Under the pieces are notes generated by a model that searched no databases, was not told where the DNA came from, and saw nothing but the letters and a program-made list of their open reading frames with translations. DNA of 46,324 nt from a virus. The stretch spans positions 1-46,324 of the IMG/VR virus record IMGVR_UViG_3300036782_000034; one strand, given 5' to 3'. Every line of letters begins with the position of its first letter. The stretch's first letter is position 1. The position numbers and the translations under genes are program-made. Of this stretch, positions 3,432 through 17,552 are shown one piece after another.

Positions 3432-3935
3432 TTACTTTACCCCTGTGCTTCCGAAACCATTTTTGCCCCTCCGACTTTCCGACAGCTCGTCTACCTCAAC
3501 AAAATGAGCTGTTTCCACTGGCGCTATGACGCCTTGAGCAATTCTGTCACCTTTCTGTACAATCCTTGCTTCTTCATTAACAGGGTATTTAGTATCTATT
3601 ACATCCCCGTTCAAACCTGATACAGTAAAGTCATTGAAATCAGAATGCGTAGCTGTATTCTCTACAATGATGCCAATTCCATCACGATATCCACTATCAA
3701 TTGTCCCTAAGATTACTCTAAGTTTTGTTCTTGCCGATATTCCACTGCGAGGACGTATCTGCAATTCATATCCTGGTGGGATTTCAAATGCTAATCCAGT
3801 TGGAACGATTCTTGTTTCTCCAGGTCCTATAATTACATCCTCTGCTGCTACAAGATCAAAACCAGCATCGCCTGGCTTCGCATATTTCGGTAACTCCACA
3901 TCCTTCAATCTCTTAATTTTCACCCGTAAATTCAT
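3432..3935 (-). CDS. dut: dUTP diphosphatase (trimeric dUTPase)
   Basis: Motifs GDAGFDL, RPRSG, GTIDSGYRDGIG and C-terminal RGKNGFGSTG are typical of trimeric dUTPases. Confidence 0.9.
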   Translation of the reverse strand: MNLRVKIKRLKDVELPKYAKPGDAGFDLVAAEDVIIGPGETRIVPTGLAFEIPPGYELQIRPRSGISARTKLRVILGTIDSGYRDGIGIIVENTATHSDFNDFTVSGLNGDVIDTKYPVNEEARIVQKGDRIAQGVIAPVETAHFVEVDELSESRRGKNGFGSTGVK

Positions 3936-3949
3936 TTCCTATCCGCTCC

Positions 3950-4117
3950 TTATAAGTAACTTTTCAATTTCTCTTTCTGTTTCTTCAACACTTCCAAGGA
4001 AAGCTTGGTCTTCCGCTTCTCGTTATCCAATCCAACCAGATGATACTCAAGTTTATGAATCTCGCTTTCTACTACTGTGAGCTCACCTTCCAGCTGTATT
4101 TTGGTTTCTTTCTTCAT
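3950..4117 (-). CDS. Coiled-coil small protein, 55 aa
   Basis: Hand translation (MKKETKIQLEGELTVVESEIHKLEYH...). AGGAGGG RBS 7 nt upstream. Fills the gap between the NrdH-like gene and dut. Confidence 0.45.
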   Translation of the reverse strand: MKKETKIQLEGELTVVESEIHKLEYHLVGLDNEKRKTKLSLEVLKKQKEKLKSYL

Positions 4118-4127
4118 GCAATCCCTC

Positions 4128-4409
4128 CTACAGTCCTAAATGGCCCATGATCTTTCCTATGTTTTCGTCAAAGCCGCGTAAAATATCTACTCTTGTCGTA
4201 CCTTCATAGACATCAAAAGTAGGTAGTGTATTTGATTTTAGAAATTCCGTTAACTCATATTTGTATTTTGAATTTTTATCAACGTTTCTTTCTTTTAACA
4301 CAAGATTTTCTTTGATATGAGCAGGAAGGTTTTCAAGATGAACCTTCGCTCCTTTGCATTTACCACAATTTTCGCCAGTGTACATAATAATCACGATCTT
4401 AGTTGCCAT
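4128..4409 (-). CDS. Glutaredoxin/NrdH-like thiol redoxin
   Basis: 93 aa with N-terminal beta-strand + CGKC (CxxC) active-site pattern and thioredoxin-fold length. Confidence 0.7.
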   Translation of the reverse strand: MATKIVIIMYTGENCGKCKGAKVHLENLPAHIKENLVLKERNVDKNSKYKYELTEFLKSNTLPTFDVYEGTTRVDILRGFDENIGKIMGHLGL

Positions 4410-4478
4410 TCTCTTCAGTCTCCTTTGCTTCTGCTAATAATTGAGTTACTTCGTAAGTACCATGCTCTGTATATTTCA

Positions 4479-4772
4479 TTATTTTTCATCTCCTTTTTGT
4501 GGAATTTTTTCTATAACATTTAGACTCCAGTAAGACGGAATTCTATTGATATCACCTTCACCACTACCGTATTGAATTTCACCTTCTATATAAGTGGCTT
4601 CTACCTTCAAATCGTAATTCAAGTTATGCCCCTCTAAAATTTCAGTTTCTAATTGTTCAACTAAGTCATTATCTATTTCTGTCATAACCCCTAATGTCAT
4701 ATATCCATGAATTTCATAAATAAATGGGTTGCCTACATCATAGGTACTTACTATTACAGTGGTTTTATTCAT
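4479..4772 (-). CDS. Hypothetical protein (97 aa)
   Basis: Track ORF 4479..4838 trimmed to the ATG at 4772, which overlaps the stop of the upstream 45-aa ORF (ATGAATAA). Confidence 0.55.
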   Translation of the reverse strand: MNKTTVIVSTYDVGNPFIYEIHGYMTLGVMTEIDNDLVEQLETEILEGHNLNYDLKVEATYIEGEIQYGSGEGDINRIPSYWSLNVIEKIPQKGDEK

Positions 4773-4902
4773 TCTCCCCATCCCTTTCCAAAAGCCCCGC
4801 CAGTTCTTCAATCGACCCTTCAAATAAGTCGCGCCCATCTGGTAGCTTGTATATGTGATTATCGATTAATTTGTTGATTAAAACGTCTTGCTCTTGCTCC
4901 AT
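4765..4902 (-). CDS. Hypothetical small protein, 45 aa (MEQEQDVLINKLIDNHIYKLPDGRDLFEG...)
   Basis: Hand translation. AGGAGG RBS 4-5 nt upstream of the ATG at 4902. Confidence 0.4.
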   Translation of the reverse strand: MEQEQDVLINKLIDNHIYKLPDGRDLFEGSIEELAGLLERDGENE

Positions 4903-4910
4903 GTTGCCTC

Positions 4911-5318
4911 CTAGCTTATCTGCTGTACTTTCTTACGACTCACCACTGGCTTTGTAGCTGCTTCATAAGGTTTCATTCCTCTAGTAATCCGTCGATAAAA
5001 TGTAACGTCCTTAATTCCGTTCTTTCTTGCTAATTCCAAATACGTTGCGTACCCTACTGGTTTTGTAGCCGCTTCATATAGATCCATACCGTTTTTAACT
5101 CTTTTAAAAAAAGTCGGTTTGCTTATTCCATTTTGTTCAGCGAAAGTTATCATCCCAGCGTAAATTCCGCCTTTCTTCTTTCTTACAGGTACCGTTATAG
5201 CGCGCTCTAACTCCCATCCATACTCATTAACCCGCTGATATACATTTGATTTGCTAATGCCGTTCTTAGCAGCTTTCTCGTAATCCTCATCAGTGATGAA
5301 AGTTTCGTAATAATTCAC
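4911..5318 (-). CDS. Triple-repeat HTH-like DNA-binding protein (paralog A)
   Basis: Three ~35-45-aa internal repeats of A-x-x-NGI-x(4)-[FV]Y-x-R-x(3)-G-x(3)-E-A-A-T-K-P-V. Confidence 0.6.
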   Translation of the reverse strand: MNYYETFITDEDYEKAAKNGISKSNVYQRVNEYGWELERAITVPVRKKKGGIYAGMITFAEQNGISKPTFFKRVKNGMDLYEAATKPVGYATYLELARKNGIKDVTFYRRITRGMKPYEAATKPVVSRKKVQQIS

Positions 5319-5764
5319 AACGCTTCCTCCTTAACTTTTACTGAGCAACGTCTTCCTGTATTGATTGGCGGCGTTGTTGCTGCTTTCTCGTAATCCCATT
5401 TCCGTGTATGAATTCGTGACATGAAAGTTTGATAGCTAATTCCATTTTGTTTAGCGACATTCAACCACTTCTTTTCTGCTTTGTTCTTTTGTCTTACAGG
5501 CTTTGTTGCTGCTTCATAGCACTCCCACCCTAACCATAATCTGCTGTAAAAAGTGCTAATGTTTATACCGTTTTCTGATGCTACTTTGAGCCATTTTGCA
5601 TGTTTCCTTTCGTATTCATGCCTAACTGTACCGATCGGAGCTGTTATTGCTTTCTCTAAATCCCATTCAAAATCATAGACACGACTGTTCAATCTTTCTC
5701 TGTTTACCCCGTTAGCTGCTGCCCTTGCATATTCCTCACTAGTTAACCAGCGATTTAATGCCAT
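5315..5764 (-). CDS. Triple-repeat HTH-like DNA-binding protein (paralog B)
   Basis: Same three-fold repeat as 4911..5318 (AAANGVNRERLNSRV..., ASENGINISTFYSRL..., AKQNGISYQTFMSRI...). 4-nt overlap with paralog A. Confidence 0.6.
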   Translation of the reverse strand: MALNRWLTSEEYARAAANGVNRERLNSRVYDFEWDLEKAITAPIGTVRHEYERKHAKWLKVASENGINISTFYSRLWLGWECYEAATKPVRQKNKAEKKWLNVAKQNGISYQTFMSRIHTRKWDYEKAATTPPINTGRRCSVKVKEEAL

Positions 5765-5776
5765 TACTTCTCCCTC

Positions 5777-6049
5777 CTAATCCAACGCCATGATTTCATC
5801 TCTCGTACGTTCAGAACTAGTTATCCCAATCTTCTGAATGCCTTTACCATGTTCTTTCACTGCCGCGCTCCATGCTTCGCTCTCTGTTTTTACATCGAAC
5901 CAATCAATACGTCGCTTTTCTTCCTTGTCATAGAACTCCACAGCGTATGTCGTTATGACGCTAGGCTTCGCTAGGAATTGCTCTGCCGTGCTCTTTGCTT
6001 TGTAATCGAAAGTACCCAATATGTCGTCAAAACTTAGTTGACCGACCAT
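5777..6049 (-). CDS. Hypothetical protein (90 aa)
   Basis: ORF track. Tight spacing in the operon. Confidence 0.6.
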   Translation of the reverse strand: MVGQLSFDDILGTFDYKAKSTAEQFLAKPSVITTYAVEFYDKEEKRRIDWFDVKTESEAWSAAVKEHGKGIQKIGITSSERTRDEIMALD

Positions 6050-6050
6050 T

Positions 6051-6446
6051 TTATACGCCTCCGCTATTCAAATCTTTCATATCCCTTAGTTGTATCTTCA
6101 AAATGTTTATAATTTCAGTTGTTGAGTTATAAGCGTTTTTCCATCTCATGCATGCTGCTTCTGCTTGCGCTTCTGCTTTTCTATGCTCACTTGCTGCAAA
6201 TTCTGCTTGCATCTCACGTTCTTTCGCAGTTCCATTCGGATTGTAGGTGAAGCATTTTGCAATTGTTTCTTTCCGAATCGCTTCTGACATCTTCCAATCA
6301 CTTAACGCTGCTGCATGCAACTTTCCTGTCAGTGAGAGAATATCACCGTATGTTTTGAGTTTTTGTAGCAAATCACCAGGAAGATCTTCATCTAATCCTG
6401 CTGCTCTTGCATACAATCCCTTTAACTTTTCTTCATCCTTTGTCAT
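6051..6446 (-). CDS. Hypothetical protein (131 aa)
   Basis: ORF track. Confidence 0.6.
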   Translation of the reverse strand: MTKDEEKLKGLYARAAGLDEDLPGDLLQKLKTYGDILSLTGKLHAAALSDWKMSEAIRKETIAKCFTYNPNGTAKEREMQAEFAASEHRKAEAQAEAACMRWKNAYNSTTEIINILKIQLRDMKDLNSGGV

Positions 6447-11681: not shown

Positions 11682-11870
11682 TTACACCGCTCCTTCCGAA
11701 TGATCGTGTAATAAATCCAAAGCCATTTCTATTAGTACTTCTAGATGTTCAGTTCTACTTGTAATACAAGGAAACGTCCCTTGTTCATTAGTTATGGTCC
11801 CAGGATAACGATCTCTTCTATCTGTAAACGTAGATTCTAAGATTTCAATCGCTTCTTTTAACTGACTCAT
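11682..11870 (-). CDS. Hypothetical protein (62 aa)
   Basis: ORF track. 4-nt overlap with the antirepressor gene. Confidence 0.55.
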   Translation of the reverse strand: MSQLKEAIEILESTFTDRRDRYPGTITNEQGTFPCITSRTEHLEVLIEMALDLLHDHSEGAV

Positions 11871-12595
11871 GCTGTAGCACTTCCTTTATTAAGCAGCTTG
11901 TCTGCTACACGAACCGCATCTTCTAGTTGATTTGTCATTGATAAGTACTGTGGTCTTGTTAGGTCTTTCAAACCATGTTTCTCTTTATATTTGGTAATTC
12001 GTAATTTCAAGTTAGTCTTGTATGCAGTGTTGAATGCATCTGTGAAAGCTCTCCATGCATTCGGAATGGTCATTTTCTCTTGTTGTGCATGTCGTCTAAT
12101 CATTTTGTTTAAGCGTTGCTGCAAGTCACCGATTGTGTCGATTCTGTCAATGTTATCTAATCGGTGATTCACTGTTGTTACTTGCTGTTCTAGATGAACC
12201 ATTCTTTTTTCACTTTCCATATTTTGTTGAGCTAACATATAGATCAACTCAGCTGGTGACTTCGCTTGTTGTTGGCGGAATCGTTTTTCTACTTCAATAA
12301 AGTATTTTCTGATTGCTCTACCAGCTTCATTGTTTTGTACCATCGCAATTTCTTTCGCTGTATCTATGGTTAGTAAATATTCTGTAGATGGTCTACCGTT
12401 TGTTTTACTCAAAAATGAGTAAAAGTCTTCGTTTTGTGCAAACCCATAATTGTTAATCAATCTAGAAATCCAATCGTTGAATCTTGTGTTAACTAACAAT
12501 TGTTCATGAAGTTCTCTTGCGTTTACTACTTTTTCGTTGTTTTCGTTTTGATAAACCGGAAGTATTTCATTTGCGATTACTTTTAATTGATTCAT
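11867..12595 (-). CDS. Phage antirepressor (AntA/ORF6N-like N-terminal domain)
   Basis: N-terminus LKVI..ILPVYQNENNEKVVNARELHEQL...FNDWI...YGF..NEDF is the typical antirepressor N-domain pattern. Second gene of the cro operon. Confidence 0.7.
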   Translation of the reverse strand: MNQLKVIANEILPVYQNENNEKVVNARELHEQLLVNTRFNDWISRLINNYGFAQNEDFYSFLSKTNGRPSTEYLLTIDTAKEIAMVQNNEAGRAIRKYFIEVEKRFRQQQAKSPAELIYMLAQQNMESEKRMVHLEQQVTTVNHRLDNIDRIDTIGDLQQRLNKMIRRHAQQEKMTIPNAWRAFTDAFNTAYKTNLKLRITKYKEKHGLKDLTRPQYLSMTNQLEDAVRVADKLLNKGSATA

Positions 12596-12615: not shown

Positions 12616-12640
12616 TTTTTGAGACGTCTCTTTTTGAGAC
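12616..12640. promoter_or_regulatory. Repeated TTTTTGAGAC boxes around the palindrome gagacgtctc
   Basis: tttttgagac at 12616-12625 and 12631-12640. gagacgtctc is palindromic at 12621-12630. Related boxes occur at 12907-12922 and 12964-12973. Confidence 0.45.
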
Positions 12641-12660
12641 CTGCAAGGTAAAAAAAGAGA

Positions 12661-12858
12661 CTACTTTGTTAATTCATCAATAGTAACTTCATACAAACCA
12701 GCGAGTAAAGACAATCTATGTAAGTTAGGTTCACGCTTTCCTGTTTCTACTTGAGAATACGAGTTCCTGTTCGTGTAACCCATTGTTTCAGCTACTTCAA
12801 CCTGCGTGAAACCTTTAGAAAGTCTTAGCTCCCTAATCTTTTCCGTGTTTAATTTCAT
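12661..12858 (-). CDS. Cro-like XRE-family HTH regulator (65 aa)
   Basis: Classic HTH_3 pattern (LRLSKGFTQVEVAETMGYTNRNSYSQVETGKREP). Divergent from the cI-like gene. Confidence 0.8.
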   Translation of the reverse strand: MKLNTEKIRELRLSKGFTQVEVAETMGYTNRNSYSQVETGKREPNLHRLSLLAGLYEVTIDELTK

Positions 12859-13071
12859 TCGGTATCACCCTTTGTTCGTTTCGTTGATTTGAGTATAACA
12901 TAGGGAGTCTCTTTTTGAGAACCCCTAAATTTAAAAAAATAAAAATTTTTAAAAGTGTTGTCATTTTGAGAACAAATTTGTTAAATTTAAGATATAGGAA
13001 ATGTATTTATATAATTATTTTTAGTGTTAGTAAGTAAAAGTTACTAATAAATATTAAGGGGAATAAAAAGA
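12859..13071. promoter_or_regulatory. Divergent cro / cI-like control region with TTTTGAGA(A/C)C boxes
   Basis: AT-rich 213-bp intergenic region. Boxes gtctctttttgagaac (12907-12922) and ttttgagaac (12964-12973) repeat the 12626-12641 sequence. Confidence 0.6.
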
Positions 13072-13422
13072 ATGGACTACAAATTAATTAGTAGACGTGT
13101 TAAAGAGATAAGGACTGACATACTAAAACTTAGTCAAAGAGAATTCGCTGAAGCGTTAGGAATACAGAGCAGATCTGCTGTTTCTATGTGGGAGAATGAA
13201 GAAAGTACAAAATGCCCATCTAAAAAGATGAGCTTAGAAATCGCGAAGCTTGCTAATGTATCGGTTTCTTATGTATTAGGAGAATCTGACGAAAAGAATC
13301 CTGAATCAGTAGCTAAAGACGACTTAGAACAAGTAATGATAGATATACGTTCTAAAAACCCAGACAAACAAAAAGAACTAATTGAGATGATAAAACAACT
13401 AGTTAAAATATCAGGCGATTGA
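13072..13422 (+). CDS. cI-like XRE-family repressor (116 aa)
   Basis: N-terminal HTH_3 (LKLSQREFAEALGIQSRSAVSMWENEES). Divergent from the cro-like gene. AAGGGGAATAAAAAGA precedes the ATG. Confidence 0.8.
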   Translation: MDYKLISRRVKEIRTDILKLSQREFAEALGIQSRSAVSMWENEESTKCPSKKMSLEIAKLANVSVSYVLGESDEKNPESVAKDDLEQVMIDIRSKNPDKQKELIEMIKQLVKISGD

Positions 13423-13458
13423 TAGCATCAAATGCTACCGATCGCCTCTTTTATTTTT
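13413..13458 (+). terminator. Intrinsic terminator of the cI-like gene
   Basis: 16-nt arms 13413-13428 / 13432-13447 (one G-U, one mismatch) followed by cttttattttt. Confidence 0.6.
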
Positions 13459-13565
13459 AATAGCATCTCATAAGACTCTGCATCCCCATTTTGAGCCGCA
13501 TTAAAGATACCTTGTAAGTTATTTTCAATTTCTACCAATTCTTTCTCGATGTTAGTTTGTTCCAT
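13428..13565 (-). CDS. Small ORF downstream of the peptide gene, 45 aa (MEQTNIEKELVEIENNLQGIFNAAQNGDAESYEMLLKIKEAIGSI). Positional analog of aimX.
   Basis: Codon-by-codon hand translation. GGAGGA RBS 8 nt upstream. Ends 5 nt from the converging cI-like stop. Below the track cutoff. Confidence 0.45.
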   Translation of the reverse strand: MEQTNIEKELVEIENNLQGIFNAAQNGDAESYEMLLKIKEAIGSI

Positions 13566-13596
13566 CCCTAAATCCTCCAATATTCTCATAGTAGTT

Positions 13597-13612
13597 TGTG
13601 AATTAATTCACA
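13597..13612. promoter_or_regulatory. Perfect 16-bp palindrome TGTGAATTAATTCACA, candidate receptor (AimR-like) operator
   Basis: Read directly. Lies between the peptide-gene terminator and the 45-aa ORF, over a region with only weak -35/-10 matches. Confidence 0.5.
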
Positions 13613-13653
13613 TTCATTGAACTTTACTTCGTTTCTGATAAAAAGTTCAATAA

Positions 13654-13701
13654 CCCCAAAAATGAAGAATGACGTCTTCTGCAAGAGAAGACGTCATTCT
13701 T
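13654..13701 (-). terminator. Strong intrinsic terminator after the peptide gene
   Basis: 16-bp perfect stem (13665-13680 / 13686-13701), loop gcaag. On minus it is followed by CAUUUUUGGGG. Confidence 0.75.
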
Positions 13702-13715
13702 ATATATCTATTAAA

Positions 13716-13865
13716 TTAAATTCCTGTCCCAGGATCAGACATAAACATAATTGTATTTTGTGGTTCCTTAGCAACTTGTTTCGGTTGCTCTTTGTTGTCA
13801 GCAGGAGCGAATAAAAAACCGCCAGCTAACGCTACGCTTGTGATTAGCGATAGTACTTTTTTCAT
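13716..13865 (-). CDS. aimP: Secreted pro-peptide of the RRNPP/arbitrium-like system, 49 aa (MKKVLSLITSVALAGGFLFAPADNKEQPKQVAKEPQNTIMFMSDPGTGI)
   Basis: Codon-by-codon hand translation. The ATG lies 6 nt after the receptor stop. N-terminus is MKK + hydrophobic core + small residues (signal-peptide-like), followed by a polar linker and short C-terminal tail. Below the 60-aa track cutoff. Confidence 0.7.
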   Translation of the reverse strand: MKKVLSLITSVALAGGFLFAPADNKEQPKQVAKEPQNTIMFMSDPGTGI

Positions 13866-13871
13866 TTAGCA

Positions 13872-15029
13872 TCACCCAACTAAATTATAGCATTTTTGGG
13901 ACATTATGCCTAGGTTTTTCTTCGCCAAATACGAATAAAAAATATCGGAAGATCGCTCGAATAAATCCAAAGCATCGCTTAATATTTGTGGGTCATTCCC
14001 CTTCGCTATTCCTAGATAAGTTAAGCCAAAAGCACCTAGCTTCCCTTTAGTTTTCAATACCTCTTCTAAAATACTTATTGCTTTTTTTGCATTGCCTTTT
14101 TGTATTTCTAAATAAGCCTTTTCGACTTCATCCTTAGGTTCGATATTGTTCAGATCTACCTTCCAATGTATCTTCAAGAAGTCGACCGTATTCAATATCA
14201 TATTTTTCCGCTTCATCATTTGATTACCAGGACCATTCACTATAATGCTAGCGGCAGAGTTTAAATAACCTAACGATTTGTGATAATCCGTAAAAATATA
14301 CGATTCTCCTAGTACACCATACGCTGTTGCTTTAAAGATAGGGAATAACATGTCTGAGTTATCATCATTGATTATTCCATGGCATATACTTCTTAGTTTT
14401 TGGATTTCATTACATGTTAACAATCCATAAATAGTAGCTTCTTGTATTTTAAATTTTAAAAAGGCCTTAGCATAATCGTCTTCTAACTCTTCGACCTTCT
14501 CATGTAATTCTTCAGAAAGTCGAATCATCGACTTATAGTTTTTCTGGTCATACCTAATATGAAGAAGAACTATACCCTTGAGAATCTCAAATTCAACATT
14601 TTTTGACTTAATACCCTCTACTTTTTCTTTATAAACTTTTAATAAGCTATCTCCAGATAAATCACCTTTGTATCGCAAATATATTAATCTGCATACCGTT
14701 TCCCAATCATGTTTAATTGTTGATTCATTTAACAGCTCCGCTACAGTGTCTAATTCCCCGTGTGCTAGTAAATAATATACGGCTACCTTTTTATTACCCT
14801 GTCTCTTCAAGACGCTAGAATATTCGCGACAAAAACTCCTTCTCGCATTAATATCATCGGGATAAACTTCCTTTAAAATCACTCCGTATTTGTTAAAAAC
14901 GAGTTGATGTTTTCCTTTTAAGAATCTTGATAATGTCGCTCCATCAATATCTATCCTCTTCACGAGTTGGGTTCTATTGATATTCTTACTATTCATATCA
15001 TCAGATATTTTACTTAACACTTTTTGCAT
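13872..15029 (-). CDS. aimR: RRNPP-family peptide receptor/transcription regulator, AimR-like (385 aa, N-terminal HTH + TPR-like helical repeats)
   Basis: Start set at the ATG at 15029 (AAGGGGAG 7 nt upstream; the track start is a TTG). HTH-like INRTQLVKRIDIDGATLSRFLKG, then about 300 aa of helical repeat sequence. Size, architecture and the immediately downstream pro-peptide ORF match AimR-AimP organisation. Confidence 0.7.
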   Translation of the reverse strand: MQKVLSKISDDMNSKNINRTQLVKRIDIDGATLSRFLKGKHQLVFNKYGVILKEVYPDDINARRSFCREYSSVLKRQGNKKVAVYYLLAHGELDTVAELLNESTIKHDWETVCRLIYLRYKGDLSGDSLLKVYKEKVEGIKSKNVEFEILKGIVLLHIRYDQKNYKSMIRLSEELHEKVEELEDDYAKAFLKFKIQEATIYGLLTCNEIQKLRSICHGIINDDNSDMLFPIFKATAYGVLGESYIFTDYHKSLGYLNSAASIIVNGPGNQMMKRKNMILNTVDFLKIHWKVDLNNIEPKDEVEKAYLEIQKGNAKKAISILEEVLKTKGKLGAFGLTYLGIAKGNDPQILSDALDLFERSSDIFYSYLAKKNLGIMSQKCYNLVG

Positions 15030-15352: not shown

Positions 15353-15368
15353 ATATGCAATTATGCAT
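15353..15368. promoter_or_regulatory. Operator-like inverted repeat ATATGCA-at-TATGCAT (TATGCA motif family)
   Basis: Read directly. Related palindromes at 15388..15397 and 16174..16191. Confidence 0.4.
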
Positions 15369-15397: not shown

Positions 15398-15524
15398 TTT
15401 ACCACTAATTCAACCAAAAGAGAACATAGGTTCTTATATTTATTTTAGTTGAGATTAGAAATATATCAAAATCTTATAAATGACAATACATCTATCATTT
15501 GTAGTATATCGATATTTCTATAAC

Positions 15525-15530
15525 TATAAT
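15525..15530 (+). promoter_or_regulatory. -10 hexamer TATAAT placed 6 nt before the ATG of the second XRE gene (possible leaderless mRNA)
   Basis: tataat at 15525-15530, then gtcact, then the ATG at 15537. No Shine-Dalgarno is present. Confidence 0.35.
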
Positions 15531-15536
15531 GTCACT

Positions 15537-15881
15537 ATGAAAACTTTAGGTGAAACTTTAAAAAAACTTAGAAAAAGTCGTTCGTTAAGACAAGCTGATT
15601 TAGCTCATGAACTAAATCTCAGCAGAAGCCAGATCAACAATTATGAAAATGGTTTTTCTGAACCTGACCTAACGACAATGTTTCGTCTCGCCTCCTATTT
15701 CAATGTAACGTTAGACGTACTTACTGGACGTACTGACGTTATTGATGATGATAAGTTACATAATACTCTCTTAGGTGTTCAAAAGACGTATGGGGCGTTA
15801 TCTGAAAGCCAAAGAGAAAACTTTTGCAAACAACTTGATCATTATGTGAGATTCCTAGGCGAGAATAACGAAGTGCTGTGA
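15537..15881 (+). CDS. Second XRE-family HTH regulator (114 aa)
   Basis: HTH_3 pattern LRKSRSLRQADLAHELNLSRSQINNYENGFSEPD begins right after Met20 of track ORF 15480..15881. The upstream 19 codons look non-coding. Confidence 0.75.
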   Translation: MKTLGETLKKLRKSRSLRQADLAHELNLSRSQINNYENGFSEPDLTTMFRLASYFNVTLDVLTGRTDVIDDDKLHNTLLGVQKTYGALSESQRENFCKQLDHYVRFLGENNEVL

Positions 15882-16170: not shown

Positions 16171-16373
16171 AAAATATGCAATATTGCATATCCATTAACT
16201 GTAATACGACCCTTATTTTGCTGATAACATGTTAGTTACAGATATGCTACGATACGCAAGTATGAACCGCTATTGCTAACGTTTAGTGGTCCATCATTCA
16301 CATGCTAGGAGCATAGTTTCCTAGATTGCGGTTTCATTCCGCAGCCCTTAACTATTCGTTGAGGGCTTTTTTT
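16171..16373 (+). promoter_or_regulatory. ~200-nt structured leader or short transcript ending in a terminator, 90 nt upstream of the 16464 ORF
   Basis: Hairpins accgcta/tagtggt (16266-16289), ctagga/tcctag (16305-16324) and tgcgg/ccgca (16327-16343). Terminator stem 16343-16352/16358-16367 (one G-U) followed by T7. Confidence 0.4.
16174..16191. promoter_or_regulatory. Perfect 18-bp palindrome ATATGCAATATTGCATAT at about +4 to +21 of the 16136 promoter (operator)
   Basis: Read directly. Same TATGCA half-site as at 15353 and 15388. Confidence 0.55.
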
Positions 16374-16463: not shown

Positions 16464-17552
16464 ATGGGGAATAAAAACAAAGAGAAAAAACCTAGCGAGT
16501 CGCAACTTGCCCAACAAGCGATAGCGAATAAATATCAAACTTCACCTATTATCGTAGAAGCTAAGTTTAGTTCAACTGATCGTGGCTATGCCGCTGTAGA
16601 TAAAGATCACATTCAACTTTTCAAGTTCAATAAAGGGACACAAGACGTTTCTAGCGTCGGTACATACAACTTTGATGAATATGACACTGTTACTATTGAT
16701 AAATTCGCTGTTAAAGCTGTTATGGAGTTTAAAGGGATGAATAAAACGTTCGTATTTATGCCAATTCAACAAACAAACGATATTGAACGTTTAATCAAAA
16801 CGAACACTTCTATTCAAATCGATAAAGTAGAACGTAAATTACATAACAAAATATTAGGGTTCCGATCAAATACAAAGTGGAAAATGATTGTAGCAAGTGC
16901 TGTATATCTATTTATTGTAGTTGCTGCTGTTAGCGGGTTTATAGATAAGAAAGAAGAAAAGGTTGCCAGTTCACAAGTTTCTCAAACTAACAATGAACCA
17001 GCAAAAAAATCATCAGCATTAGATCATGCACCAAAAGAAACAGCCAGTAAGCCTAAAGATACAGCTCTAAAAATGGATGATGGCCGTAATGTAAACATGG
17101 AGATTTACAACAAATACAACGTGAAATATCCGTCTCTCGATCCAACTACAAAGGATAAGGATTCAATGGAACATTTTGAAAAGATGGCTGAGAAGTATAG
17201 CATGTCTGTACCAGAATACATTTCAAAAGAAAAAGAAATCGTTGCTGCTAATGTTCAAAAAGAAAAAGAGGCAAAACAAAAAGCTGATGAGGATAACAAG
17301 CAGCGTGTCGGAGCTAGTAAACCAACTATCTCAAAAGACGAGTTTGACAGAATCGAAAATGGTATGACATACGATCAAGTAAAAGAAATTATCGATAGTG
17401 ATGGCGAGGTTATGTCTGAATCTGGAGATAAAGGAACTGAATACTACACAATCATGTACATGTGGAAAGGTGAAGGCTCACCAGGAGCTAATGCTAATTT
17501 CATGTTCCAAGGTGGTAAGCTGAACAATAAAGCCCAGTTCGGATTGAAATAA
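16464..17552 (+). CDS. Single-pass membrane protein: cytoplasmic N-domain, TM helix (WKMIVASAVYLFIVVAAVSGFI), extracellular K/E-rich linker and a C-terminal small beta-rich domain (DUF3862-like)
   Basis: GGAGGAG RBS 10 nt upstream. One clear TM segment. The C-terminal pattern ISKDEFDRIENGMTYDQVKEIIDSDGEV...YMWKGEG resembles DUF3862 lipoprotein domains (by eye). Confidence 0.7.
   Translation: MGNKNKEKKPSESQLAQQAIANKYQTSPIIVEAKFSSTDRGYAAVDKDHIQLFKFNKGTQDVSSVGTYNFDEYDTVTIDKFAVKAVMEFKGMNKTFVFMPIQQTNDIERLIKTNTSIQIDKVERKLHNKILGFRSNTKWKMIVASAVYLFIVVAAVSGFIDKKEEKVASSQVSQTNNEPAKKSSALDHAPKETASKPKDTALKMDDGRNVNMEIYNKYNVKYPSLDPTTKDKDSMEHFEKMAEKYSMSVPEYISKEKEIVAANVQKEKEAKQKADEDNKQRVGASKPTISKDEFDRIENGMTYDQVKEIIDSDGEVMSESGDKGTEYYTIMYMWKGEGSPGANANFMFQGGKLNNKAQFGLK

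Follow-up and report, generated by a model that had tools for sequence, protein, structure and literature searches.

A 45-codon gene as the probable aimX of an extended arbitrium module in a Bacillus cereus-group phage, with two inverted repeats in its leader

The viral record IMGVR_UViG_3300036782_000034 of IMG/VR was analysed over positions 1 to 46,324, a stretch of 46,324 nucleotides that is called the window in the following. Between a peptide-receptor gene and a cI-like repressor gene it holds a small open reading frame (ORF) of 45 codons, which is preceded by a perfect 16-bp palindrome and runs head-on towards the 3' end of the repressor gene. There is good reason to regard this locus as an "extended arbitrium" module, the lysis-lysogeny switch of a temperate phage from the Bacillus cereus group, and the 45-codon ORF as its aimX. 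An earlier note on this DNA had already described the ORF as the positional equivalent of aimX and had remarked on its good ribosome-binding site (RBS). Both points stood: all five genes of the module (AimR, AimP, AimX, AimC, and AimL), as defined in the preprint of Kabel et al. of November 2025 (bioRxiv 10.1101/2025.11.23.689978), were found in the window, and the ORF has a homologue in the equally placed ORF of phage Waukesha92. Every database relative of the ORF product carries the name "hypothetical protein"; the correct annotation of such a protein of 45 amino acids (aa) as the effector of a lysis-lysogeny switch would be the main value of this assignment.

By sequence comparison, the ORF is a conserved protein-coding gene and belongs, as a divergent member, to the AimX family of which the Waukesha92 protein is part. 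Its translation MEQTNIEKELVEIENNLQGIFNAAQNGDAESYEMLLKIKEAIGSI matches PHROG 7267, a family annotated as "unknown function", at 4.9e-18 and covers positions 1-45 of the 45 profile positions. A hidden Markov model built from Waukesha-type sequences only retrieved the ORF with an E-value of 6e-8, the next best of the 197 small ORFs in the window reaching 0.26, and a pairwise BLASTP comparison with AimX of Waukesha92 gave 9e-09, with 43% identity and 82% positives over the C-terminal 28 aa. In related loci, the 3' end of the ORF keeps its position with respect to aimC, and the 48 distinct nucleotide versions of the ORF all have 44-50 codons. Differences between these versions pile up at third codon positions (5175 versus 3350 and 2730 in the 45-codon group), the median ratio of non-synonymous to synonymous polymorphism (pN/pS) lies at about 0.31, and neither of the other frames is open. 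AlphaFold2 predicted a helical hairpin with a mean predicted local distance difference test (pLDDT) score of 93.4, consisting of helices 2-25 and 29-41 with the turn at an invariant G-D. Sequence searches against the PDB gave no match for AimX and a weak helix-turn-helix (HTH) match only for AimC.

The gene caller of the source had taken a 53-aa version of the ORF with an ATG at 13589, a start without RBS. The start at 13565 is preferred because PHROG 7267 is matched over its full length and relatives have 44-50 aa. The sequence block TTGGAGGATTTAGGGATGGA around the RBS of this start is invariant among the window, PfNC7401, and Waukesha92. In GenBank, the aimX homologues of Waukesha92 (locus L002, 4327..4509, Waukesha92_35) and PfNC7401 (locus L001, 3830..4012) are given as 60 aa with a GTG start that falls within the palindrome; judged by the conserved RBS and ATG, both genes encode 45 aa instead. 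The start of aimX thus appears to be mis-called by gene callers in the window as well as in Waukesha92.

The order of the module, read from the receptor gene, is aimR, aimP, terminator, a long-spaced inverted repeat (IR-1), palindrome, and aimX, followed by the convergent aimC and the divergent aimL. The individual features are:

13872..15029, minus strand: aimR, arbitrium peptide receptor, 385 aa from the ATG at 15029, with an N-terminal HTH and an AimR/TPR domain
13716..13865, minus strand: aimP, 49-aa pre-peptide MKKVLSLITSVALAGG...MFMSDPGTGI, starting 6 nt after aimR
13654..13701, minus strand: intrinsic terminator of aimP, 16-bp stem 13701..13665, then CATTTTTGGGG
13616..13651, minus strand: IR-1, long-spaced 36-bp inverted repeat ATTGAACTTT-N16-AAAGTTCAAT between the aimP terminator and the palindrome
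13592..13613, minus strand: conserved leader element TGTGAA-N4-TTCACAAACTA, composed of the palindrome 13597..13612 and its conserved 3' flank, 3 nt downstream of IR-1
13573..13578, minus strand: RBS of aimX, GGAGGA, 7 nt before the ATG
13428..13565, minus strand: aimX, 45 aa, predicted helical hairpin, probable antirepressor of AimC
13413..13459, plus strand: shared hairpin with U-rich tail, terminator of aimC, holding both stop codons
13214..13233, minus strand: terminator-like hairpin inside aimC on the aimX strand, from the terminator scan (-11.5 kcal/mol, z -3.1), followed by AUUUUGU
13072..13422, plus strand: aimC, 116-aa single-HTH repressor (Pfam HTH_3 only, 6.1e-10) with a C-terminal helical domain and without autocleavage domain
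12859..13071, no strand: divergent control region between aimC and aimL with repeated TCTC-TTTTT-GAGA-like motifs, read from the sequence
12661..12858, minus strand: aimL, 65-aa cro-like HTH protein (Pfam HTH_3, 6.7e-14) at the head of the early lytic operon

The same five-gene layout is present in Waukesha92, PfNC7401, BMBtp14, B83, IEBH, Athena, LY4, and phBC6A51, and it recurs in 71 loci that were fetched through the convergent HTH protein (AimC), which is 81-100% identical in many viral contigs of the B. cereus group. The product of aimR matches Pfam PF22871 (AimR) at 2.7e-35 and weakly matches HTH_26, while its identity to the AimR homologues in 28 records of B. cereus-group phages is 22-30%. 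AimP matches PHROG 2682 at 2.9e-17; its N-terminus is hydrophobic, and its last residues are DPGTGI. Presumably the C-terminal 6-10 residues, DPGTGI up to MFMSDPGTGI, form the mature signal; the peptide of Waukesha92-like phages given in the literature is the C-terminal 10-mer MMSEPGGGGW, and AimP of phBC6A51 ends with DPGTIG. The window is probably a complete or near-complete genome of a phage or phage-plasmid, related phages having 45.6-48 kb.

The systems described by Kabel et al. (phi106, phiW23, Wbeta, BMBtp14, and Waukesha92-like) agree with the window in all five genes, in their order, and in their orientation. As in these systems, AimC of the window is short (116 aa; range 80-140) with a single HTH and without a cleavage domain, and AimX is a small helical protein of 45 aa (reported range 29-80) whose gene abuts aimC with its 3' end. 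Compared with Waukesha92, the aimC DNA is about 85% identical and the C-terminal half of AimX is 43% identical, whereas the N-terminal half of AimX and the C-terminal domain of AimC belong to a different subtype. AimR is only 27% identical to its counterpart in Waukesha92, the recognition helix and the operator-like repeat differ, and the peptide ends with ...DPGTGI in the window and with ...EPGGGGW in Waukesha92.

By analogy with the published work on its relatives, AimX of the window is most likely an antirepressor of AimC. In phi106, Wbeta, BMBtp14, and Waukesha92-like phages, AimX has been reported to relieve PaimL of its repression by AimC, and overexpression of AimX increased the plaque-forming units of a Waukesha92-like phage 100-fold (bioRxiv 10.1101/2025.11.23.689978). 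According to the same preprint, AimX-AimC heterodimers prevent the oligomerisation and DNA binding of AimC, alleles of aimX in phi106 and phiW23 that were recoded or had a stop in place of the start showed the protein to be active and the RNA to have little effect, and aimX of SPbeta is still thought to act as RNA. The earlier note had considered the small protein, antisense interference, or both as the route to lysis; of these, the small protein is favoured by the AimX antirepressors reported for this type of module, including that of a Waukesha92-like phage.

Kabel et al. likened these proteins to the SinI-SinR pair of Bacillus subtilis, in which a small helical antirepressor blocks repressor oligomerisation (bioRxiv 10.1101/2025.11.23.689978). 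The window resembles this pair in having a small predicted helical hairpin, AimX, beside an HTH repressor with a C-terminal helical domain. In contrast to SinI and SinR, AimX showed no detectable homology to the C-terminal domain of AimC (hhalign probability 6.5%, 31 columns, turns in register), and a descent of AimX from this domain is not supported. Across the related loci, the AimX subtype tracks the subtype of the AimC C-terminus, while the HTH of AimC and AimR assort independently. In this way, the window and locus L010 have AimX and the AimC tail in common but differ in the AimC HTH and AimR. As AimX subtypes follow those of the AimC C-terminal domain, the pattern is consistent with a contact at this domain.

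Alignment of the leaders revealed two inverted repeats rather than one, and IR-1, the repeat that adjoins the aimP terminator, had been overlooked in the earlier note. In an alternative reading, IR-1 consists of the 6-bp boxes ATTGAA/TTCAAT with an N24 spacer of 29% G+C, and its complementary arms reach 10 bp. The score of this repeat was reached by 0 of 300 shuffles. IR-1 is found in the same position in all clades with differing arms, and these arms co-vary with the AimR HTH across about 14 types. Loci with the same AimR recognition helix have the same arms, even in locus L004, whose AimR is 65% identical overall, and also where the AimC/AimX subtype differs (L071, with an AimC of 66% identity, and L010 versus L053). 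Related AimR helices go along with related arms (...STLS.ILN... with GTTCG and ...HTT.N... with GGAA), and unrelated helices with unrelated arms. The solved AimR operator of SPbeta consists of two 6-bp boxes with a 25-bp spacer, with 23-28 bp being tolerated, and phi3T has the same layout (PMC6458997, Gallego del Sol 2019); the N24 spacer of IR-1 falls into this range.

Since the arms of IR-1 follow the AimR HTH, whereas the palindrome is the same before more than 10 AimR types, IR-1 is the likely AimR operator. This comparison goes beyond the literature found in placing the probable AimR site of B. cereus-group phages directly after the aimP terminator. Window-type IR-1 arms were also observed together with a degenerate palindrome, TATGATTTTTTCGCA, in the locus L043 (IMGVR_UViG_2684623201_000011, 3500..6205). 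The only long AimR-like ORF there is unrelated and lies about 1.4 kb further off, with ORFs of 220 aa and 113 aa in between, and this looks like a decayed or rearranged arbitrium locus.

As in SPbeta and phi3T, aimP is followed by a terminator, a short gap, a pair of inverted boxes that an AT-rich spacer of about 24-25 bp keeps apart, and aimX. The boxes themselves differ, with ATTGAA/TTCAAT in the window versus ATCACT/AGTGAT or ATGTTC/GAACAT in those phages, and so does the length of the arms, which extend to 10 bp in the window. The window has in addition the conserved palindrome after the operator-like repeat, and its aimX encodes a predicted AimC antirepressor, in contrast to the MazE-like antitoxin of phi3T and the RNA of SPbeta. 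Like these two phages, the window is without a detectable promoter between aimP and aimX. No sigma-70-like promoter was called on the minus strand in 13566..13700, which agrees with the poor promoter matches that the earlier note had described around the palindrome. The TA..A stretch behind the palindrome was also rejected as part of a sigma-70 promoter, as the sixth position is mostly A and not T in relatives.

In phi3T and SPbeta, aimX has no promoter of its own and shares a transcript with aimP, and termination is prevented by AimR that is bound just downstream of the terminator; altering the distance between terminator and site abolishes this antitermination (PMC10769878, Zamora-Caballero 2024). 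The gap between the terminator stem and IR-1 is 13 nt in the window, and that between the annotated stem-loop and the operator of SPbeta is 14 nt. Both gaps contain a T-run followed by (A/G)GG, which is also visible in the listed B. cereus-group leaders; terminator-to-IR-1 distances taken automatically from minimum-energy folds are unreliable. The tail directly 3' of the 16-pair stem of the aimP terminator (13701..13665) was given as CATTTTTGGG by the terminator scan, and the leader RNA folds with -43.9 kcal/mol (z -5.2). In BMBtp14, B83, and phBC6A51, only 10-25 nt separate IR-1 from the aimX RBS, too few to accommodate a promoter. By analogy, antitermination is somewhat favoured as the mode of AimR action in the window and, as the comparison of operators suggests, might be general rather than a peculiarity of SPbeta. 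Under antitermination, the absence of any transcript that starts in 13566..13650 would not speak against the function of aimX.

The following sequence of events is proposed. In the absence of peptide, AimR would be bound to its operator, which is suggested to be the 36-bp repeat at 13616..13651 and not the 16-bp palindrome. Transcription from aimR and aimP would then run on beyond the terminator of aimP, as it does in phi3T and SPbeta. The 45-aa AimX would be translated and would bind to the C-terminal oligomerisation domain of AimC. With its oligomerisation lost, AimC would leave the operators between aimC and aimL, the early operon headed by aimL would fire, and the phage would enter the lytic cycle. 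In the presence of peptide, AimR would be released from the DNA, transcription would stop at the terminator, AimX would not be made, and repression by AimC would lead to lysogeny.

Several points weigh against this scheme or parts of it. Overall identity between the AimX proteins of the window and Waukesha92 is no more than 31-33%, the preprint having tested a Waukesha92-like phage. For the phage of the window, the binding of AimX to AimC, the binding of AimR to DNA, and the structure of the transcript are all deduced by analogy. Antitermination has been shown for SPbeta-like phages only, and the conserved TA..A stretch after the palindrome could be a weak -10 box. The co-variation of AimX with the AimC tail could partly reflect physical linkage, as the 3' ends of the two genes are adjacent, and the co-variation of IR-1 with AimR could partly have the same cause, as these partners are also neighbours on the DNA. 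IR-1 is too imperfect to be significant by itself in about five AimR types. Finally, a cis effect of convergent transcription may exist in this clade, since the allele genetics come from phi106 and phiW23.

The second inverted repeat of the leader is the palindrome TGTGAATTAATTCACA, which lies at 13597..13612 past the terminator of the peptide gene, exactly as the earlier note had it. It is the sole copy in the window even if three mismatches are allowed, and no second copy was found in the aimC-aimL region or elsewhere in the window. The window contains two perfect 16-bp palindromes, compared with 1.04 expected from shuffles. As such palindromes are not rare here, the weight of this one must come from its conservation, which was judged from 45 distinct leaders of the AimC-family sample, chosen independently of the palindrome. 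TGTGA(A)-N3/4-(T)TCACA followed by AAYTA is present in 30 of these 45 leaders, in 23 with an N3 and in 7 with an N4 spacer. The remaining leaders have the right half only (1 leader, L026), the different palindrome GTAAT-N2-ATTAC (6 leaders), or neither (8 leaders). The right half with its flank also stands alone in phage 0105phi7-2. An exact-pattern scan of viral contigs gave at least 119 stretches with the element, and about 70 of those listed also hold an AimR homologue; by a rough estimate, the matches without AimR homologue are close to the number expected by chance. The element stands beside AimR homologues before small ORFs of at least seven unrelated families, and the type of palindrome is independent of AimC, AimR, and the divergent HTH gene (15480..15881). 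Such a widely shared leader element is beyond the literature found. For B. cereus, B. thuringiensis, and B. anthracis, IR-1 and the element together could help to predict the cross-talk between arbitrium prophages and how readily these are induced.

Candidates for a protein that binds the palindrome were sought in the module and beside it. AimC and the product of the divergent HTH gene were rejected because near-identical proteins accompany different palindrome types (L069 versus L070 and L006 versus the window). AimL was rejected by the indirect argument that the palindrome is constant before unrelated aimX families. An analogy with the 16-bp palindrome TTGTAATGCATTACAA upstream of yopM in SPbeta was not upheld either; that sequence is SPBRE, the multi-copy site of the master repressor MrpR, whereas the element of the window is single copy. 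We know of no regulator among ResD, Fnr, the Fur family, ArgR, and DnaA whose half-site or box resemblance to the element fits both its spacing and its conservation, and a literature search for ResD was unproductive. Tentatively, and with doubt slightly outweighing confidence, the element is regarded as a separate add-on control site with a probably host-encoded DNA-binding partner, which would provide a second input.

A specific form of this idea is that the palindrome is an operator at which a host regulator blocks aimX, either as a roadblock or as a repressor at a core promoter, in a role similar to that of the LexA box in phi106. The palindrome takes the place of this LexA box, with the AimR-controlled region on one side and the RBS of aimX on the other, whereas the window differs from phi106 in that no core of a LexA (Cheo) box, GAAC-N4-GTTC, is present near aimX (13401..13760), the nearest candidate being mismatched and lying inside IR-1. 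The element is kept regardless of AimR, AimC, AimX, or the divergent HTH gene, and its single copy in a probable whole phage genome argues for a host rather than a phage factor. The window copy would fit the redox sensor Rex, whose operator has the form TTGTGAA-N4-TTCACAA: of the 14 positions that are specified in the Rex consensus TTGTGAAnnnnTTCACAA (PMC4162614, PMC2883068), the site TTGTGAATTAATTCACAT (13596..13613) matches 13 and deviates at one. In addition, five proteins of the phBC6A51 prophage rise in a rex mutant of B. cereus. This effect is not explained by the palindrome, however, as phBC6A51 has an extended arbitrium module without palindrome, and the link to Rex through these proteins was rejected for this reason. 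Most relatives deviate from Rex boxes in having an N3 spacer (23 of 30 homologous leaders) instead of 4 nt, and this predominance argues against Rex as the conserved partner. The persistence of the right half and flank alone in some lineages (L026; 0105phi7-2) is likewise ill-suited to a symmetric dimer site. It is therefore rather unlikely, although the near-perfect Rex box of the window would allow it, that a host regulator of this kind gates AimX independently of the peptide. If it did, population density and the physiological state of the host would be joined at one leader, as in phi106 with LexA. This would also address a question left open for most extended systems by the preprint (bioRxiv 10.1101/2025.11.23.689978), namely the second input to systems without a LexA box at aimX.

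The palindrome might also act in RNA, as a 6-bp hairpin in the read-through leader of aimX that affects mRNA stability, processing, or translation. The variation between N3 and N4 loops on a constant stem would be natural for a hairpin, and the hairpin is present in the minimum-energy fold of the leader. Furthermore, two one-sided changes in relatives (TGTGAG and TTCGCA) retain G-U pairing on the sense strand, and the different palindrome of other clades, GTAAT-N2-ATTAC, is located in the same place. The hairpin is weak, however, with -4.5 kcal/mol and a z of -2.0, and 13 of 200 shuffles fold as well. Within the TGTGAA type, the sequence of the stem is conserved rather than co-varying, the right half and 3' flank persist where the left half is lost, and Rfam contains no credible family match. 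A role in RNA is thus an improbable reading of much the same standing as the blocking operator, and for the palindrome as a whole the hairpin is ranked as less likely than a DNA site for a host protein.

The model of the earlier note fares worse. It held that peptide-free AimR binds the palindrome and activates a weak promoter there, and that the resulting antisense or convergent transcription lowers the expression of aimC. The palindrome does lie between aimP and the ORF in a region where a good promoter is absent, and its 16-bp layout is the same as that of the box of PlcR, another RRNPP regulator. The hairpin shared by aimX and aimC is weaker as a terminator on the minus strand, making read-through into aimC plausible. 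A cis-antisense aimX model for cI-like repressors is credited to Stokar-Avihail et al. (2019), and control of this kind was the published hypothesis for the present architecture before 2025. The window is similar to that model in having aimX convergent with the repressor gene, a weak minus-strand terminator, and possible antisense read-through. It differs in that the coding regions are 5 nt apart, and later genetics in related systems credit the protein.

The palindrome, on the other hand, is unchanged before aimX in systems with unrelated AimR recognition helices, while the arms of the adjoining IR-1 track AimR. Known AimR operators have 6-bp boxes about 25 bp apart, not 2-4 bp as in the palindrome. 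These findings make binding of AimR to the palindrome quite unlikely. An AimR-activated promoter at this site also conflicts with AimR being an antiterminator in phi3T and SPbeta, with whose terminator-to-operator layout the window agrees. Antisense interference as the main mechanism is disfavoured by analogy with phi106 and phiW23, where stop and recoded aimX alleles behave as expected for a protein and not for an RNA. The model as a whole is accordingly considered very unlikely, and convergent transcription into aimC is probably a by-product. The reading in which the ORF goes untranslated and a non-coding aimX RNA alone carries the function can practically be dismissed, even though aimX was first described as non-coding RNA and that of SPbeta is still thought to act in this form, in view of the strong and invariant RBS and start context, the frame kept under purifying selection with third-position excess in 48 variants, the full-length protein-family match, the confident AlphaFold2 fold, and the protein-level genetics published for the same family of systems.

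At the convergent 3' ends, the stop codons of aimX (13428..13430) and aimC (13420..13422) both lie inside the shared hairpin, and the coding regions converge without overlap. On the plus strand, the hairpin 13413..13447 folds with -21 kcal/mol (z -5.7) and is followed by the U-rich sequence CUCUUUUAUUUUUA; on the minus strand, it folds with -21.8 kcal/mol and has the poorer tail UGAUAUUUU. The earlier note had called it a good terminator only on the plus strand. This is right with respect to the tail, and it does not hold for the fold, which is equally good on the minus strand; the hairpin is thus a better terminator in the plus than in the minus direction without being confined to the former. 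A read-through transcript of aimX could end at the terminator-like hairpin 13214..13233 after about 200 nt of antisense overlap with aimC.

The repeated motifs between aimC and aimL are presumed to be AimC operators by analogy with electrophoretic mobility shift assays on phi106 and BMBtp14. GTCTC-TTTTT-GAGAC-like repeats are located at 12620..12645, 12905..12925, and 12955..12975, in or beside this intergenic region, and are candidate operators of AimC or AimL. The gene that comes after aimL, at 11867..12595, encodes an AntA-type antirepressor (Pfam AntA, 9e-25).

The gene divergent from aimR (15480..15881, plus strand) encodes an XRE-type HTH protein of 133 aa and is found next to aimR in most related loci. 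Its true start may be the internal MKTLGETLKK. Relatives of its product are annotated as "prorepressor", "immunity repressor", or "prophage repressor", so that a second repressor-like gene is present beside aimC. About 45 nt upstream of this gene and about 390 nt upstream of aimR, the sequence AGAACATAGGTTCT at 15422..15435 contains a perfect LexA core, GAAC-N4-GTTC, and a LexA core is present at the equivalent position in 34 of 57 distinct related loci. Judging from its sequence, this site could be a DNA-damage route into extended arbitrium systems that have no LexA box at aimX.

The box of PlcR has the consensus TATGNAN4TNCATA. Two sites in the window resemble this consensus: TATGCAATATTGCATA at 16175..16190 is a perfect match and at the same time the only other perfect 16-bp palindrome of the window, and TATGCAATTATGCATT at 15354..15369 matches at 15 of 16 positions. 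Both are intergenic, flank the divergent HTH gene, and lie upstream of a 362-aa ORF (16464..17552). The relaxed 15-nt pattern TATGNANNNNTNCAT has three matches at two sites compared with 0.75 expected, a number reached by 8 of 100 shuffles. These PlcR-like sites may represent a link to the PlcR quorum-sensing regulon of the host.

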